This document shows positions 1-26,507 of a stretch of DNA of 29,302 bases, one piece after another. A model generated the notes under the pieces. That model was not told where the DNA came from, searched no databases, and saw only the letters and a list, made by a program, of their open reading frames with translations. The position numbers and the translations under genes are program-made. Position 1 is the first letter of the stretch. The number at the start of each line of letters is the position of its first letter. The stretch comes from a virus. Location of the stretch: UHGV virus genome UHGV-0110803; one strand, given 5' to 3'.

Positions 1-504
1 CTGCTCGCGCCCTATGCGCCACATTGCATCGGCAATTTCCCGGTCATTGCTGCCGCTGGCGATGAATTGCACCAGCCCGGCACGGTCAAAATCGTAGTTG
101 ATACCGGAATGATACTTGCCGCGCAGTTGCGCCACCTCCGAAGATACCGACCGGCGGGCGCCGATACGCGCATCGTTGCGGCCAACCAGCATTGCTTCAA
201 GCCCGATATCCGGGCGGTCTTTCCAGATAGTACGAAGCTCTCTAAGTCGTTGTGCGGCAATACGGGCGTTGATTGCCTTATTGCGAGCCTCAATCTGTTT
301 TGCCAGCATATCGGCATTGCTCAGTTCTTCCGCTGCGCGCATCGCGGCCTCTTCCAGAGACAGCGCCTCATTGGTCGCCAGAATTCGCCTAGTGGTGTCG
401 TTCATGTCACGCACCAGCGACTCCATCTCATCGGAAGAAAGCTCGCGACCAGCGGCAGCATTTACACTGCGCTCGCACTGCGTCAAAAATTCGTTTGCTG
501 CCAT
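1..504 (-). CDS. Internal virion/ejection protein, 3'-truncated by the window edge (N-terminus MAANEFLTQCERSV...)
   Basis: Open frame with no stop from ATG at 504 down to position 1 (168 codons); its ATG overlaps the TGA of the upstream gene (ATGA); absent from the ORF track because no stop lies inside the window. Confidence 0.5.
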   Translation of the reverse strand, partial: MAANEFLTQCERSVNAAAGRELSSDEMESLVRDMNDTTRRILATNEALSLEEAAMRAAEELSNADMLAKQIEARNKAINARIAAQRLRELRTIWKDRPDIGLEAMLVGRNDARIGARRSVSSEVAQLRGKYHSGINYDFDRAGLVQFIASGSNDREIADAMWRIGREQ

Positions 505-8325: not shown

Positions 8326-8933
8326 CAGGACAACCTCGCAATGGTAAACTCATCAACCGGTGGCTGTGGTTCCTGTGATTCATTCTGGCTATGCGAGCCA
8401 GCACTAAGAATCACGCGATTGTACATATTGAGGGCAAACGTACCGAGGTCTGCATTCCCAGTCAGCGCCATGTTAATAGCTGCCGCAAGACGCCAGGCCA
8501 GCGCCTCCATAAAAATGGCATCAAACATGTTCACATCTGTAACGCGAGAGACATACTTAAGCCATGCCTGCGGCTGGTCTGTGTAGATCAATTTTCCTGT
8601 TCCGTTGGTGTCTGCACCAACTTCGTACTGAACACGCATTGCTGCTGTTGGATTGCGTACACCAGGAAGCATAATTTCAGTAATGCGCAGACAATCGGAA
8701 GGGTACTGGTACGCATATTCCCAGTCAGGCGGTGGATTGCTCGTATCTGCAAGCGCCACGCGTTTTGTAGCAAAGTTCCAGTCAAAATCAGAAAGCACAG
8801 CATCACGACAGGCCTCAAAATGCAGCGAACATTCCCCCGCTTCCTTGCTGGCTTCCGTCAGGCTGTTAATGCTGCGGCTGTTGCCAATATTGGACAGCGC
8901 ACGATTACAGATCTCTACTACAGAGGCCATCAC
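8325..8933 (-). CDS. Tail tubular protein A-like (adaptor/gatekeeper), 202 aa
   Basis: About 200 aa immediately upstream of the tubular B-like gene; N-terminal pattern NRALSNIG ... DFDWNF resembles T7 gp11-type proteins. Confidence 0.5.
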   Translation of the reverse strand: MMASVVEICNRALSNIGNSRSINSLTEASKEAGECSLHFEACRDAVLSDFDWNFATKRVALADTSNPPPDWEYAYQYPSDCLRITEIMLPGVRNPTAAMRVQYEVGADTNGTGKLIYTDQPQAWLKYVSRVTDVNMFDAIFMEALAWRLAAAINMALTGNADLGTFALNMYNRVILSAGSHSQNESQEPQPPVDEFTIARLS

Positions 8934-9253
8934 TCACCCCCGTTACCGTAGAGGGTTTCAGCCGCTGATTTTTCTACATCACCGGAAACAGGAGCGATTG
9001 CCATATCAGTGATCTGCAGATCGGCGCTGCGATTAACACCATCGTCAGTTTCTCTGGCAGACAGGCCTCGAATAACAGCCTTCGCAGTTATCATCACTTC
9101 TGTTCCGACGCCCTGAGGTTGCGCCTTCAGCTTATTCAATGTGTCGTTATTCAGCGTGATGCACAGCCCCCACGGGTATTCATCGCGAGTTCTGGTTTCT
9201 CCGCTCTCATCCTGGTAGCTGTCAGTGCCGGTTTTGAGGTTTACGAGTTCCAT
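8930..9253 (-). CDS. Hypothetical virion-module protein (107 aa from ATG)
   Basis: Track ORF trimmed to the ATG preceded by AGGAG at 7 nt; the track start is an upstream GTG. Confidence 0.4.
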   Translation of the reverse strand: MELVNLKTGTDSYQDESGETRTRDEYPWGLCITLNNDTLNKLKAQPQGVGTEVMITAKAVIRGLSARETDDGVNRSADLQITDMAIAPVSGDVEKSAAETLYGNGGE

Positions 9254-9262
9254 ATACACTCC

Positions 9263-9287
9263 TGCAATAAAGGGGCCGAAGCCCCTT
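9263..9287 (-). terminator. Intrinsic terminator between head-accessory and tail genes (AAGGGGC-TTCG-GCCCCTT then TTATTG on the minus strand)
   Basis: Perfect 7-bp stem located between the stop at 9304 and the next RBS. Confidence 0.45.
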
Positions 9288-9303
9288 GTCTGATTCGCGA
9301 GGC

Positions 9304-9639
9304 TTACACGCCCAGTTCTTTACGCTTATCTGCGATCTTCTCGCGGAGCGTTTCAGCTTTGGCGTTATGGTGTGGCTTCTCGTTAAAGAGCAATTCGTAC
9401 TCTTCACGGAGCTTATCCAGTTCACCATCATCTGACACATCGTTGATGATTTTGGTGCTGGTTGCTGCCATTGACACCTTTCCTGCAACTTTTGCTTTTG
9501 CCTGTCTGGCTGCATCGTTAACAGGTTCCAGTGCGCTACCAGGCTCACCTTCGTATTCGATTTCTGCCCCCTCCGGCCACAGTGTGTTATGGATATGAGA
9601 GAGGCGCAGAACGCGGTATCTTGGTTTCTCACCTGACAT
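9304..9639 (-). CDS. Hypothetical head-module protein (111 aa from ATG)
   Basis: Track ORF trimmed to the ATG preceded by AAGGTGA; followed by an intrinsic terminator. Confidence 0.4.
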   Translation of the reverse strand: MSGEKPRYRVLRLSHIHNTLWPEGAEIEYEGEPGSALEPVNDAARQAKAKVAGKVSMAATSTKIINDVSDDGELDKLREEYELLFNEKPHHNAKAETLREKIADKRKELGV

Positions 9640-14099: not shown

Positions 14100-14136
14100 T
14101 TGACATTTAATGCGCGAATTATTACCTTTGAGGTAA
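14100..14136 (+). promoter_or_regulatory. Putative promoter region for the tRNA/moron cassette: TTGACA, AATTAT, then palindrome TTACCTTTGAGGTAA (14122-14136)
   Basis: TTGACA at 14100-14105; the decamer AATTATTACC is shared with the pL-like promoter; the -35 to -10 spacing is suboptimal (11 bp). Confidence 0.4.
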
Positions 14137-14458: not shown

Positions 14459-14535
14459 GTGGCATTAGCTCAGTTGGACAGAGCAACCGCCTTCTAAGCG
14501 GTTGGTCGCAGGTTCGAATCCTGCATGCCACGCCA
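14459..14535 (+). tRNA. tRNA-Arg (anticodon UCU), CCA encoded
   Basis: Cloverleaf folded by hand: acceptor GTGGCAT/ATGCCAC, D-stem GCTC/GAGC, anticodon stem ACCGC/GCGGT with loop CTTCTAA, T-arm GCAGG-TTCGAAT-CCTGC, discriminator G, CCA. Confidence 0.85.
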
Positions 14536-14620: not shown

Positions 14621-14698
14621 ACAGCAGGACGCCATTGCGATGACTTCATGCTGTAAACCAGTACAGCCACGGAAGGCAGAACTCATTGCTTCCAGTTC

Positions 14699-16720: not shown

Positions 16721-17313
16721 TGATTACCATCCTGACGTTCTTTGAGTCGCTTCCTGGCTGCTGCTATGCGATCAGCAATTGTCACATTCACATTAACATC
16801 CAGACGTTCTTTGAACGCGTTGACATCAACATGCTTACCAATCAGCTCAAGGTTCTTCACCTTGTCAGGCCATTTAATTTTTTTGAGGATTGTCTCTATC
16901 GAATCCTCGTTCATGTTCATGATGGTCGATGACAGATCAAAGCCACTAAGCGTAGTGCGCCAGATTTTCGGCCACTCACGGATTGGTTTAAGGCTCCCAT
17001 CGTCGTTGAGGATGTCGATCACGTCCATCTGGTCGATCTCCACCAGGCGCATGAGAACGTAATCAGCACTGACGCGCATTCGTTTGTTGCGCTCCTCCAT
17101 CAACTCGGCAATCCGTTTTTGAATGCGTTCATCGCGCATCATGACACTGGCTTTAACTGCCGCTGTATTTGGGGAGAATCCTGCGTTAATCGCTGCCTGA
17201 GTCTGGTTTTCAGGCGTTTTGATGTATGACTGGCAATAAGCCTCCTGCATTGCTGTTAGTGGCTTAAATTGCGTTGATTTGCGTTTATAGGTTTTAGGTT
17301 CAGCAGGCATCAT
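16717..17313 (-). CDS. terS: Terminase small subunit (about 198 aa from tandem ATG ATG; track ORF starts at an upstream TTG)
   Basis: Motif LTAMQEAYCQSYIK ... QTQAAINAGFS typical of small terminase HTH region; AAGGTGG RBS before the ATG pair. Confidence 0.8.
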   Translation of the reverse strand: MMPAEPKTYKRKSTQFKPLTAMQEAYCQSYIKTPENQTQAAINAGFSPNTAAVKASVMMRDERIQKRIAELMEERNKRMRVSADYVLMRLVEIDQMDVIDILNDDGSLKPIREWPKIWRTTLSGFDLSSTIMNMNEDSIETILKKIKWPDKVKNLELIGKHVDVNAFKERLDVNVNVTIADRIAAARKRLKERQDGNQ

Positions 17314-17330
17314 AACCACCTTGGTAATAG

Positions 17331-17353
17331 TTACCGTTGTGGTAATAGTACCA
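17331..17353 (-). promoter_or_regulatory. Palindrome TTACCGTTGTGGTAA fused to an extended -10 (TGG TACTAT on the minus strand) upstream of terS
   Basis: Perfect half-sites; the -10 hexamer shares its last base with the palindrome, the same geometry as three other promoters in the window. Confidence 0.5.
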
Positions 17354-17354
17354 T

Positions 17355-17382
17355 GCAAAATAAAGCCGCCATAGTTGGCGGC
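17355..17382 (-). terminator. Intrinsic terminator after the 70-aa gene (GCCGCC-AACTAT-GGCGGC then TTTATTTTG on the minus strand)
   Basis: 6-bp GC stem plus U-tract, located 5 nt after the stop codon. Confidence 0.55.
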
Positions 17383-17387
17383 AGTAT

Positions 17388-17600
17388 TCAAAGTCCATCA
17401 AATTCATCGTAAAAACTCTCGTCAAGATACCCTTCCCATTTACCGCGAATGAAAATTACATCCTCGCCGCAAGGGTGCTGACTGTCGATAACTATATCCC
17501 TCCTGGCGCAACCATACTTATGCATGAGAAATTTAACCTCTTTCGGAAAATTTGCTGAGTTATCTCTCATATCTTCAAGGTCGTAGCGTATTTTTGGCAT
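17388..17600 (-). CDS. Hypothetical small protein (70 aa from ATG)
   Basis: GAAGGTG RBS; the GTGACATGTCAC palindrome lies immediately upstream. Confidence 0.4.
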   Translation of the reverse strand: MPKIRYDLEDMRDNSANFPKEVKFLMHKYGCARRDIVIDSQHPCGEDVIFIRGKWEGYLDESFYDEFDGL

Positions 17601-19949: not shown

Positions 19950-20249
19950 TCACATCACCCTGAATCCGTTGCATTTACGTAAAAAATCGCAGATATAGCC
20001 CTTCATTTTTTCGTGCCAATCTCGATCATTCCCATTGCACCAACCATCAGGTGGAGTCCAGTTTTCTATCAGAGCAGCCATTTTCTTTGCTTTTGCAGGA
20101 GTAGCTGTTGCGGTATCGCAGTAATGACGAGTGTCGATCAACGTATCCATACCATCGATATCAAGTACGCAAAACCATGTGTGATTCGGCATTTCAACAG
20201 ATGGTATTTGTTGCCCACGTCGACGTTTATCAATAAGACATACAGTCAC
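19950..20249 (-). CDS. Hypothetical protein (99 aa)
   Basis: ORF with 4-nt overlap to the upstream gene; no recognisable domain. Confidence 0.4.
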   Translation of the reverse strand: MTVCLIDKRRRGQQIPSVEMPNHTWFCVLDIDGMDTLIDTRHYCDTATATPAKAKKMAALIENWTPPDGWCNGNDRDWHEKMKGYICDFLRKCNGFRVM

Positions 20250-21155: not shown

Positions 21156-21232
21156 TTACCTCTTAGGTAATTAAAAACCACATAAGACACGAAATCAATA
21201 GAGTTTAGAATATTTTGTTACCTGATAGGTAA
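21156..21232 (-). promoter_or_regulatory. Minus-strand promoter with two perfect palindromes: TTACCTGATAGGTAA (21218-21232), -35 TTGATT, 17-bp spacer, -10 TTTAAT fused to TTACCTCTTAGGTAA (21156-21170)
   Basis: Same geometry as the pL-like promoter: site, 19 bp, -35, 17 bp, -10 sharing one base with the second site; 62 bp centre to centre. Confidence 0.55.
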
Positions 21233-22882: not shown

Positions 22883-23083
22883 TCAGCTTGAGTGTTGTGG
22901 GGAGGAATTAATCATGATCTGCTTAATCTCTGCCCTGATGCGACGGTTTGATTCCATGGTGCACTCAACACAGTGTCCGTTGTAAACCCAGCGTTCACTG
23001 TCATGTCCGTGCTTACATGGTTTTCCGGTGTAGTAGCGTTTAAGTCCGCGCTTTGCGGCATCAATACGTGTAATGATTTCCAT
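22883..23083 (-). CDS. Small Cys/His-containing protein at the cII-equivalent position (66 aa from ATG)
   Basis: C-x-H-x-H ... C-x-x-C pattern; track ORF carries an implausible N-terminal extension. Confidence 0.4.
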   Translation of the reverse strand: MEIITRIDAAKRGLKRYYTGKPCKHGHDSERWVYNGHCVECTMESNRRIRAEIKQIMINSSPQHSS

Positions 23084-23163
23084 GGTAAGCCCTGTTATTA
23101 GTATTGGGATTACGGTTATTTTGTGCTGACACAAAAAAAAGATCAACCATATTTGGTTTTTTA

Positions 23164-23178
23164 TTACCTTTGAGGTAC
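23164..23178. promoter_or_regulatory. Operator-like palindrome TTACCTTTGAGGTAC (one mismatch) just downstream of the tR1-like terminator
   Basis: 14 of 15 bp identical to the site at 14122-14136. Confidence 0.45.
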
Positions 23179-23184
23179 GAATAG

Positions 23185-23212
23185 ATATGAAAAGACCGCC
23201 GGATGGCGGTCT
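23185..23212 (-). terminator. tR1-like intrinsic terminator after the Cro-like gene (AGACCGCC-ATCC-GGCGGTCT then TTTTC on the minus strand)
   Basis: 8-bp GC stem plus U-tract about 20 nt after the stop codon. Confidence 0.55.
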
Positions 23213-23233: not shown

Positions 23234-23464
23234 TCATGAGTAGAAGAAGTATGCCAGTTCTGCTTTTGAGCGCAGCCATTGTCTTGATTTACAGGCTTTA
23301 AAAAGCCCATCCATCAATACATTACCTGGCATTTTGCGCTTACCTGTTAAGTGAGTCTGGATATAGTGACTCGTCGTTCCGGCTTCCTGTGCGAAGGCTT
23401 CACGCTCATCCGGAGTAAGTGCAAGCCAGTGCTTTTTGAAATCGAAATGTCCGTTATCGCTCAT
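23234..23464 (-). CDS. Cro-like HTH regulator (76 aa)
   Basis: HTH-like segment AFAQEAGTTSHYIQTHLTGKRK; divergent from the repressor gene across an operator cluster. Confidence 0.55.
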   Translation of the reverse strand: MSDNGHFDFKKHWLALTPDEREAFAQEAGTTSHYIQTHLTGKRKMPGNVLMDGLFKACKSRQWLRSKAELAYFFYS

Positions 23465-23500
23465 AGCTATTGCCTGATATTTATTTCAGATAATAAATAT

Positions 23501-23563
23501 TCACCCATAAGGTAACAAAAATCAAGGATAGTTACCCATGAGGTGCATTTACCTGTTGGGTAA
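23501..23563. promoter_or_regulatory. Operator cluster of three TTACC-N5-GGTAA-type palindromes between the divergent regulator genes
   Basis: TCACCCATAAGGTAA (23501-23515), TTACCCATGAGGTGC (23532-23546), TTACCTGTTGGGTAA (23549-23563). Confidence 0.6.
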
Positions 23564-23618
23564 TATTGCTTTAAATTGAATCATCTACTGATTCATATAT
23601 GAGGCGATTTTCCAGAAA

Positions 23619-24203
23619 ATGAAAAGTATCCAGGACGTCCGCAGGCAAAATCTCAACGACTTGATCGACCGTGAATTCAATGGTGTTCAGACGCGGATGG
23701 CAGAAAAACTTGGAACTCAGGCAAATCTGGTAAACCGCTGGGCTCTTGGCAAGAAGGTTATCGGCGACCAGGTTGCGCGAAAAATTGAAGCTGCCGCCAA
23801 TAAACCACGTAACTGGCTTGATATCGATCGCTCGCTTTCTCAGGAAGGTTTTCAGCCTGTCGGCCCAAGCGACATTGGTCAGCTGGCGGCTCACAACCTG
23901 GAACGCTGGATGAGCGAAAGCCGCGACCTTTCAACTCAGGGAAAACTTCACCGCGCATCCGGCGTCGCCCAGGTGACAATCAGCCGCCTGTTAAACAATG
24001 AGGTCAGCGTTTCCATTTCCACCCTGGAGAATGTTGCATCCGCATTCGGGCGTCACGGCTATGAATTACTGATTCACCCGCACGACCCTGCGACCATCAA
24101 CTATGACCGCTCGCGCTACGCATTGTTACCCGAAACCGAGAAAGCAAAGATCGAAAGTTACATTGAATTTGTCATCAACCAGAACGAAAAAAACAAACAA
24201 TAA
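23619..24203 (+). CDS. Prophage repressor candidate with two HTH motifs and no peptidase domain (194 aa)
   Basis: Two XRE-type HTH segments (QTRMAEKLGTQANLVNRW and ASGVAQVTISRLLNN); no Ala-Gly/Ser-Lys autocleavage signature seen. Confidence 0.6.
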   Translation: MKSIQDVRRQNLNDLIDREFNGVQTRMAEKLGTQANLVNRWALGKKVIGDQVARKIEAAANKPRNWLDIDRSLSQEGFQPVGPSDIGQLAAHNLERWMSESRDLSTQGKLHRASGVAQVTISRLLNNEVSVSISTLENVASAFGRHGYELLIHPHDPATINYDRSRYALLPETEKAKIESYIEFVINQNEKNKQ

Positions 24204-24223: not shown

Positions 24224-24250
24224 AAGCCGCCTTCTGGCGGCTTTTTTATT
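24224..24250 (+). terminator. Intrinsic terminator after the repressor gene (AAGCCGCC-TTCT-GGCGGCTT then TTTTATT)
   Basis: 8-bp stem plus T-tract. Confidence 0.65.
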
Positions 24251-24260
24251 GCCTATACTG

Positions 24261-24337
24261 TTACCTAATAGGTAATTTTCTTAACTCATATCTATTGACA
24301 TCAAACCAAATACGCATAATTATTACCTCAACGGTAA
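24261..24337 (+). promoter_or_regulatory. pL-like promoter: palindrome TTACCTAATAGGTAA (24261-24275), -35 TTGACA (24295-24300), 17-bp spacer, -10 AATTAT fused to TTACCTCAACGGTAA (24323-24337)
   Basis: Consensus -35; two perfect palindromes 62 bp apart centre to centre. Confidence 0.6.
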
Positions 24338-24511: not shown

Positions 24512-24811
24512 ATGAACGTTAATCAGCAGAAAAATCTTCAAAAAATCATGCTGGCATTCGACAAGGACTACCGCCTGTCAGAACAGCTATATGACCGACA
24601 AGTTGAACTGATTGAGAGCATCCGACTTCATCAACTGTCCTCAACTTTCGACGTTGTAACAGGCAAAGGCGTTCGTCAGGAAGTGCTGGAGGCTGCTAAA
24701 GACAGCCCTGAGTTCGAAGAACTGATGGATGCCTACCGGCGCGAGGCAATGGCAATTATAGCGCGCTGGGATCTGGCGGATCAGCTTGATGGGCAGAGGG
24801 ACGCGGCATGA
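24512..24811 (+). CDS. Hypothetical protein (99 aa from the internal ATG)
   Basis: GGAGGG RBS 7 nt before the ATG at 24512; 4-nt overlap with the exonuclease gene. Confidence 0.5.
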   Translation: MNVNQQKNLQKIMLAFDKDYRLSEQLYDRQVELIESIRLHQLSSTFDVVTGKGVRQEVLEAAKDSPEFEELMDAYRREAMAIIARWDLADQLDGQRDAA

Positions 24812-25629
24812 AACCGGGAATTTATTTCGACATCAGCAACGAAGACTACCACGCAGGTGACGGCGTGAGTAAGTCGCAACTGGACATGGTTGCCAAGAAT
24901 CCGGCGCTTCTTAAATGGGTTCAGGCAGCACCAGAAGACGAAGAGAAAAAGTCTGCACTGGATATGGGAACCGCATTGCACTGCCTGCTTCTGGAACCTG
25001 GAGAATTCGACAAACGCTTCATCGTTTCACCGAAATTCGATCGTCGGACAAAACAAGGTAAAGCTGACGAAGAAGCATTTCTTCGTGATGTGGCGGATAT
25101 GGGTATTACGGTACTTGATGTCGAGCAGTGGCGAAAACTGGAGCTGATGCGTGATAGCGCAATGGCTCATCCGGCGGCACGCTGGATGTTGGAAGCACCT
25201 GGTTACTGCGAAGCATCAATGTACTGGAACGATGAAGAGACGGGTGAGTTGTGCCGAATTCGTCCAGACAAATGGCTGAACGAGCACAACGTGATCGTCG
25301 ACGTGAAAAAGGTTGCAGATATGGACCGTTTTGCACGCCACATCGAGGAATTCCGCTACCACGTGCAGGACGCAATGTACCGCGAAGGCGCAATGAGGGT
25401 TACTGGTCAGCCGCATGGTTTTTTCTTTCTTGCCGTGAGCGAAAGCATTGATTGTGGTCGGTATCCGGTACGCGTGTTCGAGCTGGATGCGCCAGATGTC
25501 GATGCCGGGCACGCTCTGTTCCGCCGGGATCTGAATACCTATCACGAATGCCGCATCAACGATGAATGGGGCGGAGTGGAAATTATTAAACGCCCTGACT
25601 GGGCACGTAAACAGGATATGTACGTATGA
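24808..25629 (+). CDS. PD-(D/E)XK-type recombination exonuclease (exonuclease VIII/RecE C-terminal-like), 273 aa
   Basis: N-terminus MKPGIYFDISNEDYHAGDGVSKSQL typical of this family (from memory); coupled to the annealing-protein gene. Confidence 0.7.
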   Translation: MKPGIYFDISNEDYHAGDGVSKSQLDMVAKNPALLKWVQAAPEDEEKKSALDMGTALHCLLLEPGEFDKRFIVSPKFDRRTKQGKADEEAFLRDVADMGITVLDVEQWRKLELMRDSAMAHPAARWMLEAPGYCEASMYWNDEETGELCRIRPDKWLNEHNVIVDVKKVADMDRFARHIEEFRYHVQDAMYREGAMRVTGQPHGFFFLAVSESIDCGRYPVRVFELDAPDVDAGHALFRRDLNTYHECRINDEWGGVEIIKRPDWARKQDMYV

Positions 25630-26507
25630 GCAATGATATCGCAATCACATCACAACCAGGCGCAACTGTAGGCACTGCTGCGGCAATCTTCAGCCCCGAG
25701 GGCATGAATCAACTGGTGCGTTTCGCGGAGTTGATGTCACAAAGCAAAGCGACTGTACCGAAACATCTTGAAGGCAAACCTGCCGATTGCCTGGCGGTGA
25801 CCATGCAGGCGGCACAGTGGGGAATGAACCCTTTCGCCGTGGCGCAGAAAACGCATGTGGTAAACGGAACGTTAGGCTACGAAGCACAGTTGGTAAACGC
25901 GGTCGTATCCTCTTCCAGCCTGCTAGCGACACGCCTTAATTATCGCTGGAGCGGTGACTGGTCGAATGTTAACGGCAAAACAGATAAATCACCGAATCTG
26001 ACGGTAACTGTGTCAGCAGTTCTTAAAGGAGAAGTAGAACCACGTGAGCTTACCATCAGTATGGCGCAAGCCGGAGTGCGTAACTCTCCATTGTGGGAAC
26101 AGGATCCGCGCCAGCAACTTGCCTATCTTTGCACGAAACGATGGGCTCGCCTGCACGCTCCTGATGTACTTCTTGGTGTTTACACCCCTGACGAATTACA
26201 GGAAACGGCACCGCGCGTTGAGCGAGACATTACTCCGCAAACAACTACTGCTGCGGGAATGAACAGTCTGATCAACGCTAAACCAGTGAAAAAGCCTGAT
26301 GAGCAAACGCGTAAAGCGGATAGCCGTGATCCAGAAGAAATGCTGATGGCCTTTACCAGCGCAGCGATGAATTACAGCACTGTCTCCGAACTGGATAAGG
26401 CTTACAAATACATTGCACAAAAACTTTCAGATGATGACGAACTGCTGGCAAAAGCCACCGACGTTTACAGCGTTCGTCGGGAAGAATTAAACGAAACATC
26501 TATGTAA
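25626..26507 (+). CDS. Single-strand annealing protein, Bet/Red-beta-like (293 aa)
   Basis: Segments NPFAVAQ, PLWEQDPRQQL ... RWARLHA and ERDITP parallel lambda Bet (recalled, not searched). Confidence 0.75.
   Translation: MSNDIAITSQPGATVGTAAAIFSPEGMNQLVRFAELMSQSKATVPKHLEGKPADCLAVTMQAAQWGMNPFAVAQKTHVVNGTLGYEAQLVNAVVSSSSLLATRLNYRWSGDWSNVNGKTDKSPNLTVTVSAVLKGEVEPRELTISMAQAGVRNSPLWEQDPRQQLAYLCTKRWARLHAPDVLLGVYTPDELQETAPRVERDITPQTTTAAGMNSLINAKPVKKPDEQTRKADSRDPEEMLMAFTSAAMNYSTVSELDKAYKYIAQKLSDDDELLAKATDVYSVRREELNETSM

Follow-up and report, generated by a model that had tools for sequence, protein, structure and literature searches.

A probable SPC32H-type Rep/Ant antirepression switch in a phiV10-like Escherichia coli prophage

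How a prophage leaves lysogeny when its repressor carries no recognisable autocleavage domain, and no antirepressor gene lies in view, is the question raised by the immunity region of the virus genome UHGV-0110803. The whole stretch of DNA analysed (29,302 nucleotides, referred to below as the window) is a phiV10/epsilon15-like (Uetakevirus) E. coli prophage. It is the reverse complement of a phiV10-type prophage and is collinear with phiV10. Starting with the integrase gene, it passes over the early genes and those for replication, terminase and head, and ends in the genes of the internal virion proteins. The immunity region shares 98% identity with that of Escherichia phage phiV10 and with those of about 15 further Uetakevirus podophages of E. 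coli; among 5426 complete genomes of E. coli, 562 contain it. No complete E. coli genome matched the whole window (best match: 89% coverage, 97.6% identity); the first 2.5 kb of the window (its left end) share 99.6% identity with a prophage of E. coli ECONIH2. The locus is a rep/cro immunity region, a real but ordinary switch of an already known kind, namely the E. coli orthologue of the Rep/Ant antirepression switch of Salmonella phage SPC32H. The SPC32H system is reportedly the subject of Kim and Ryu, J Virol 2013, and Kim et al., PNAS 2016, with the PDB entries 5D4Z and 5D50.

The rep gene was located exactly where the original prediction had placed a plus-strand gene for a 194-aa protein with two HTH-type segments: Pfam recognised a YdaS/DUF739-type HTH at aa 20-61 and an HTH_3/HTH_26 domain at aa 104-148 (E 1.2e-9). 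The absence of a LexA/CI-type peptidase, also predicted, was confirmed. A cryptic S24 fold was looked for with Pfam, AF2 and Foldseek and was not found: Rep gave no Peptidase_S24 match in Pfam even at E<=1, and the domain was present in none of the 86 clusters of Rep homologues, all of which are about 194 aa long, originate from Enterobacterales and contain HTH families only. The Rep sequence contains neither an Ala-Gly nor a Cys-Gly dipeptide. Its AF2 model, made from 24 homologues (pLDDT 76.7), is all-helical (domains 1-68 and 84-151, followed by a C-terminal helix), whereas the S24 fold is beta-rich. In Foldseek, this model matched SPC32H Rep best (chains of 5D50 and 5D4Z) and XRE-type HTH proteins next, and no LexA/CI C-terminal domain was among the matches.

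The structure of SPC32H Rep has been solved alone and bound to the 86-aa Ant (PDB 5D4Z, 5D50). In phmmer searches of the PDB, aa 1-190 of Rep matched 5D50_A (chain 'Repressor' of the 'Rep-Ant complex from Salmonella-temperate phage'; E 4e-42), and aa 89-190 matched 5D4Z_A (E 4e-20), an entry covering Rep residues 92-198. The BLASTP identity of Rep to SPC32H Rep is 42% (53% in the N-terminal domain and 32% in the middle domain), and the epsilon15 repressor is also 42% identical. Closer relatives include the repressor of TL-2011b (98.5% identity) and a group of proteins with 100% identity, comprising phiV10 gp40 (Perry et al., 2009), ORF21 of vB_EcoP_ZX5 (PMC9782041), the repressors of phiv142-3 and PAS61, and others; the record of phiV10 gp40 has read 'putative transcriptional repressor, two helix-turn-helix motifs' since its deposition. 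When the ZX5 repressor was overexpressed, endolysin and holin transcription fell by more than 99.9% and no free phage was obtained (PMC9782041). In SPC32H Rep, as outlined in PMC9986798, a middle dimerization domain is followed by a C-terminal domain for tetramerization and Ant binding. The earlier description 'tandem HTH' fits Rep as a fold, but its second segment, which by homology corresponds to this middle dimerization domain, is probably not a second DNA reader. A toxin-antitoxin ('VapI antidote') reading of Rep was also considered, and was ruled out by synteny, the operators and the full-length PDB homology. The name 'VapI antidote' comes from the annotation of one phage record; weak HigA/YdaS matches are also present.

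The rep and cro-like genes diverge from a 154-bp spacer carrying three 15-bp palindromes of the form TTACC-N5-GGTAA (Table 1), whose half-sites were invariant in an alignment of five phages. These palindromes are putative Rep sites. Three operators had been predicted between the two genes, and three are indeed present in the spacer (starting at 23501, 23532 and 23549), but operators of this type are not limited to them. The rep-ward promoter candidate (TTTACC-17-TTAAAT, read by eye) is weak, and a consensus promoter scan left rep without a plus-strand promoter and several of the operator-marked operons without any. The early-left promoter is strong and precedes two small ORFs and the genes for a PD-(D/E)XK exonuclease and RecT.

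The predicted Cro-like partner of 76 aa was confirmed as an exact ORF, assigned to PHROG_35 ('transcriptional repressor', E 3.5e-12) and lying at the syntenic Cro position, divergent from rep across the operators. Sequence searches gave no Pfam and no PDB match for this protein. AF2, run on the single sequence, modelled it as a bundle of five helices (pLDDT 81), the nearest structures being YdaS, C-protein and the 434/P22 DNA-binding domains (TM 0.55-0.62; Foldseek E-values >1 and not significant). The recognition helix AGTTSHYIQTHLTG is kept in 5 phages and is conserved across hosts together with the operator and the N-terminal domain of Rep.

Table 1. Predicted features of the immunity region and operator-like sites elsewhere in the window
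Feature	Position	Strand	Remarks
Putative operator	14122..14136		perfect; upstream of portal/structural operon
Adjacent putative operators	17313..17327 and 17331..17345		1 mismatch and perfect, respectively; after terminator, just before small-terminase ATG
Putative operator pair	21156..21170 and 21218..21232		both perfect; 62 bp apart; between lambda-P-like gene and DUF1064 operon
Operator-like site TTACCtttgaGGTAC	23164..23178		1 mismatch; between cro terminator and next gene
Intrinsic terminator	23193..23212	-	directly 3' of cro-like gene
Cro-like HTH protein	23234..23464	-	76 aa; divergent from rep; PHROG_35
Promoter-like site, cro-like gene	23490..23518	-	TTGTTA-17-TATTAT; encloses O(R)-a
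Putative operator O(R)-a TCACCcataaGGTAA	23501..23515		1 mismatch; in spacer/-35 of Cro-ward promoter
Putative operator O(R)-b TTACCcatgaGGTGC	23532..23546		2 mismatches; half-sites conserved across phages
Putative operator O(R)-c TTACCtgttgGGTAA	23549..23563		perfect; overlaps weak rep-ward -35 candidate
Repressor gene (rep)	23619..24203	+	194 aa; ORF, Pfam, PDB match, AF2
Parts of Rep			N-terminal HTH, DNA-binding, ~aa 1-70; middle HTH_3-like, ~85-150; C-terminal helical, ~160-194
Intrinsic terminator	24224..24243	+	after rep
Putative operator O(L)-1	24261..24275		perfect; upstream of early-left promoter -35
Early-left promoter	24295..24323	+	TTGACA-17-AATTAT (10/12)
Putative operator O(L)-2	24323..24337		perfect; at early-left -10/+1, 62 bp from O(L)-1

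The window contains 7 perfect copies of TTACC-N5-GGTAA, against 0.02 expected from shuffled sequences, and each of four other genomes contains 8-10 (0.02-0.05 in shuffles over the five genomes). Non-coding operator sites are syntenic in the five genomes at the following positions: (i) the rep-cro spacer, (ii) the early-left promoter, (iii) downstream of the cro terminator, and upstream of (iv) the DUF1064 (nin-like) operon, (v) the small terminase gene and (vi) the portal operon. For the site following the cro terminator, syntenic copies were found in phiV10, Tyrion and BUCT711; in relatives, copies also precede ant, the holin gene and int. The usual order at these sites is terminator, operator, operon. 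Throughout the five genomes, operator pairs bracketing a promoter keep a spacing of 62 bp, except for a single pair (63 bp), and the pair upstream of the DUF1064 operon flanks the sequence TTGATT-17-TTTAAT (read by eye). The operator consensus is conserved across hosts, although the repressors of the five genomes are only 42-78% identical. The dispersed, paired arrangement fits one Rep tetramer bridging two palindromes and the direct repression of most operons. With nearly every transcription unit marked by an operator, one looping Rep tetramer might directly repress the whole genome, a tentative reading that is somewhat less likely than not. Such genome-wide direct repression would resemble P1 C1 or the L5 stoperators, and not a lambda-style cascade; if it is true, the Rep operator beside the LexA box of ant would form a double lock with positive feedback.

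As predicted, the window carries neither a LexA box nor an antirepressor gene. LexA boxes were scored with a rough PWM made from literature E. coli LexA sites (weakest training site 12.7 bits, median 20.1), and the best 20-mer of the window reached 10.0 bits; tblastn with Ant and the Bro-N protein returned nothing below E=1 in the window. Two candidates for a hidden trigger were rejected. A perfect CTGT-N8-ACAG at 14651-14666, considered as the LexA box of a small ORF, scored 10.0 bits, below all training sites; it has a GC-rich centre, lies between two plus-strand terminators and adjoins a tRNA-Arg gene, with which the 73-aa ORF spanning the site overlaps. The two perfect CTGT-N8-ACAG sequences present are about what chance would produce in 29 kb. 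The two small early-left ORFs (50 and 104 aa; PHROG_898 and PHROG_856, function unknown) were rejected as a hidden antirepressor because, standing behind Rep-controlled operators, they cannot be the trigger.

An antirepressor gene is present in relatives, outside the part corresponding to the window. ECONIH2 has an 85-aa ORF, roughly 5.7 kb past the left edge of the window, that matches the 'Anti-repressor protein' of 5D50 (chain E; E 1.4e-46), and about 20 nt upstream of it lies TACTGTATATTTATACAGTT, a LexA box of 28.3 bits. In close relatives this gene, ant, is placed between the tail-fibre gene and the genes of internal virion proteins, and phiV10, SPC32H, Tyrion and BUCT711 likewise have ant with a LexA box. 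In ECONIH2, phiV10, SPC32H and Tyrion this box stands out as the only such site of the genome (22-28 bits); in BUCT711 it is weaker (18.0 bits), and a second box (26.9 bits) occurs elsewhere. Ant of the relatives is about 87% identical to SPC32H Ant, and Ant homologues were found in 35 of 35 related phage records. Among the 5426 complete E. coli genomes, the ant module is present in 529, compared with the 562 with the immunity region, about 6% of which have no match to the module. In the SPC32N record, the CAG of the ant LexA box is altered by a C>A substitution, which agrees with the report attributed to Kim and Ryu (2013), who are said to have found that a single-base mutation of this box makes Ant constitutive.

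According to the summary in PMC7380047 (citing Kim and Ryu, 2013), LexA self-cleavage permits Ant synthesis in SPC32H, and Ant inhibits the repressor by protein-protein interaction; PMC9638917 describes the Ant tetramer as engaging two Rep dimers and disrupting the Rep tetramer that binds DNA. For phages of the E. coli group, mitomycin C induced a lysogen of PhiV10nluc, a phiV10-derived reporter phage, about 10-fold (PMC5021930), and TL-2011b was released after mitomycin C treatment (PMC3293862). The original interpretation of a non-autocleaving repressor inactivated by a factor encoded elsewhere is supported by the homology of Rep to the SPC32H Rep/Ant system and by the ant gene and LexA box of relatives, which lie outside the window. 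The alternative offered with it, an unrecognised small protein within the window, is not needed. We infer that this very prophage carries ant.

We consider it highly probable that the locus works as an SPC32H-type Rep/Ant switch, in which a non-cleaved Rep tetramer sits on the palindromes and is removed by a LexA-controlled Ant encoded elsewhere. The N-terminal HTH of Rep would bind the 15-bp palindromes, while dimerization through the middle HTH_3-like domain and tetramerization through the C-terminal domain are proposed by analogy with SPC32H Rep. Rep would shut the Cro-ward and early-left promoters, and probably other operator-marked operons too; having no protease domain, it would, like its SPC32H homologue, not be cleaved. 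On DNA damage, inactivation of the host LexA would free the promoter of ant (about 85 aa), expected in the tail-fibre/internal-virion-protein interval of the prophage, some 5.7 kb past the left edge as in close relatives. By the same analogy, Ant would bind the C-terminal part of Rep, whereupon the tetramer would leave the DNA. The model is based on the homology of Rep in sequence and fold, on the anatomy of the operators, and on ant and its LexA box as seen in relatives; the absence of cleavage, the binding of Ant to Rep and the control by LexA are taken from secondary accounts of the literature on the homologue. Points against the model are that the window stops short of ant and its LexA box, that about 6% of genomes with the immunity region give no match to the ant module, and that Rep is only 42% identical to the characterised protein (32% in the middle domain).

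Three other explanations were weighed against this switch. Induction of phiV10-type prophages in E. coli might proceed mainly or additionally through a Bro-N::Ant-like fusion, instead of or along with the small Ant, the fusion gene standing behind isrK-like and C4 antisense RNAs as in P1 immI. The relative ECONIH2 encodes a 236-aa Bro-N protein ending in a domain of 74 aa that shares 43% identity with Ant and falls into the same PHROG_450. In this relative, Rfam placed a C4 antisense RNA (8725-8808; 66 bits, gathering threshold 45) directly upstream of the Bro-N gene (8857-9567), and also recognised an isrK directly upstream of that gene (63.5 bits, gathering threshold 50). The window itself has no such C4 RNA. 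Judged by sequence, the Bro-N::Ant-like gene with its isrK/C4 RNAs is a P1 immI-like module. Records of E. coli, Enterobacter and some Klebsiella phages contain two or three Ant-domain loci, versus one in Salmonella ones, and overexpression of the Bro-N ORF4 of ZX5 lowered the number of lysogens about 1000-fold (PMC9782041). However, the fusion gene varies, ZX5 ORF4 and phiV10 gp23 being only 39% identical, whereas conservation of the small ant among E. coli phages exceeds 97% and its LexA box is never missing; SPC32H does without the fusion, and it is not obvious how an antirepressor under C4 control would be linked to DNA damage. We regard induction through the fusion, whether as the main or an additional route, as unlikely. 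The Bro-N::Ant paralogue, too, lies outside the window.

A mosaic or remnant prophage devoid of a functional ant module, with the repressor locked on and no SOS induction, would be compatible with a window that stops before the ant locus and is matched in full by no complete E. coli genome, and with the lower count of genomes carrying the ant module (529) than the immunity region (562). This is quite improbable: in all other respects the window is a complete and collinear phiV10-type gene set, in which the genes for integrase, replication, terminase and structure are intact, and ant stands a few kb on in every inspected genome sharing the left-end sequence (ECONIH2, H133 and H141). A hidden capacity of Rep for RecA-dependent self-cleavage, as in lambda CI and LexA, is scarcely credible: nothing found speaks for it beyond the prior that most lambdoid repressors are of the self-cleaving type, and against it stand the Pfam and homologue-cluster results, the missing Ala-Gly and Cys-Gly dipeptides, the all-helical model with its Foldseek matches, and the crystal structure of the homologue, whose whole C-terminal half is a helical dimerization/tetramerization unit.

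Compared with SPC32H, the locus described here shares (i) full-length homology of Rep, (ii) gene order, (iii) the operator TTACC-N5-GGTAA, (iv) a rep-cro spacer with three operators at spacings of 17 and 30/31 bp and (v) in the window's relatives, a LexA box in the same place at ant. It differs in the E. coli host, in the middle domain of Rep, in the ant locus being outside the window, and in the Bro-N::Ant-like paralogue with C4/isrK RNAs that E. coli relatives add. The ZX5 paper, on a phage with an identical repressor, makes no mention of LexA (PMC9782041). The same logic, a non-cleavable repressor plus a small antirepressor gene that lies outside the immunity region under direct LexA control, is found in Gifsy-1, -2 and -3 (antirepressors GfoA, GftA and GfhA), in coliphage 186 (CI/Tum) and in N15 (CB/AntC) (PMC3121763). 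No sequence kinship to these systems became apparent, and the Gifsy antirepressor gene is placed differently from ant, coming after a dinI homologue on the downstream side of the replication genes. SPC32H Ant is said, in the abstract of Kim and Ryu (2013), to be structurally distinct from antirepressors of the Gifsy, 186 and N15 type.

The immI regions of P22 (Ant/Mnt/Arc/sar) and P1 (C4 RNA-icd-ant) are likewise second immunity loci with an antirepressor away from the repressor gene, and the C4 antisense RNA directly upstream of the Bro-N antirepressor-type gene in E. coli relatives recalls P1 in particular. P22 and P1 differ, however, in having a repressor that can be cleaved (C2 of P22) or an antirepressor outside SOS control, whereas here the SOS input would come through the small Ant. 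With lambda the locus shares divergent rep and cro genes, three operators between them and a rep gene co-oriented with the early-left operon, mirroring cI/PL and cro/PR; unlike lambda CI and LexA, Rep lacks an S24 domain, a cleavage site and a catalytic Ser/Lys module.

Rep is identical to the phiV10/ZX5 repressor and its family is structurally solved. The locus is of little importance beyond correct annotation. For a possible genome-wide use of the published Rep tetramer, the paired operators dispersed over the genome and the Ant paralogue under RNA control offer modest leads. About 10% of complete E. coli genomes (562/5426) can be annotated as carrying a prophage inducible by SOS via a LexA-controlled antirepressor, and not via repressor cleavage. 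When windows of this type are scanned, ant should be looked for beside the tail-fibre gene.

A putative operator of the 194-aa repressor (Rep), the palindrome TTACC-N5-GGTAA, is present at almost every operon start, mostly directly 3' of a terminator, both in the window and in the four phage genomes compared with it (L001, L003, L005 and L006). Several copies form pairs with a 62-bp spacing and a promoter between them. The pattern is common to the five phages, representing four host genera, with syntenic sites in the compared genomes.

Operators of this type also lie next to the LexA-controlled antirepressor gene (ant) of the relatives: the LexA box of ant is preceded, at a distance of ~38 bp, by a perfect copy, and a further one is found just 3' of the gene in the E. 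coli, Enterobacter and Klebsiella phages. This placement beside ant and its LexA box suggests that Rep, in addition to LexA, represses ant. In the E. coli ECONIH2 relative (L002), the LexA-controlled ant is adjoined by a locus which, judged from its sequence, is a second antirepressor module resembling immI of P1. Its product, a Bro-N protein, ends in a domain paralogous to Ant (43% identity), and directly 5' of the Bro-N gene are Rfam matches to isrK (63.5 bits) and C4 antisense RNA (66 bits).

Two other sites were scored as LexA boxes: (i) the perfect CTGT-N8-ACAG palindrome CTGTAAACCAGTACAG of the window, placed between two plus-strand terminators and occurring as a near-identical copy in a relative, whose score is low (10.0 bits), and (ii) a second strong box, TACTGTATATTTAAACAGTA (26.9 bits), of Klebsiella phage BUCT711, which precedes a hypothetical 109-aa gene where the nin-like region ends, whereas the box preceding ant in this phage is weaker (18.0 bits).

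Coordinates of the features in the window and related genomes
Feature	Sequence	Coordinates	Strand	Remark
Operator palindrome	window	14122-14136		
tRNA-Arg(UCU) gene	window	14459-14535	+	moron region
Palindrome CTGTAAACCAGTACAG	window	14651-14666		
Small-terminase gene start region	window	17300-17391	-	
Operator palindromes	window	17313-17345		
Operator palindromes	window	21156-21232		
PHROG_1081 gene	window	22883-23146	-	3' of cro terminator
Operator palindrome	window	23164-23178		
Operator palindromes	window	24261-24337		
PD-(D/E)XK (DUF3799) exonuclease and RecT genes	window	24808-26507	+	
Perfect Rep-type operators near ant	L002	8193-8207, 8573-8587		
isrK and C4 antisense RNA	L002	8624-8808		outside window; Rfam
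Bro-N protein gene	L002	8857-9567		outside window
Perfect Rep-type operator near ant	L003 (SPC32H)	20013-20027		
LexA box TACTGTATATTTAAACAGTA	L006 (BUCT711)	382-401		

In the longest small-terminase ORF, as in the phiV10 annotation, a terminator and two operator copies lie downstream of the start. The true start is probably the ATG at ~17310/17307, which is preceded by AAGGTGG and agrees with the shorter annotations of SPC32H and Tyrion.

The position held by cII in lambda is taken in the window by a small PHROG_1081 gene (66 aa in its phiV10 counterpart), whose product contains a Cys/His-rich motif (CKHGH...CVEC) and shows a faint endonuclease VII-type match. The exonuclease and RecT are encoded by separate, overlapping genes, whereas a single fused "recET" ORF is annotated in phiV10. 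Between the terminase and portal genes lies the tRNA-Arg gene, which is shared by SPC32H and the ECONIH2 relative and is unannotated in phiV10.
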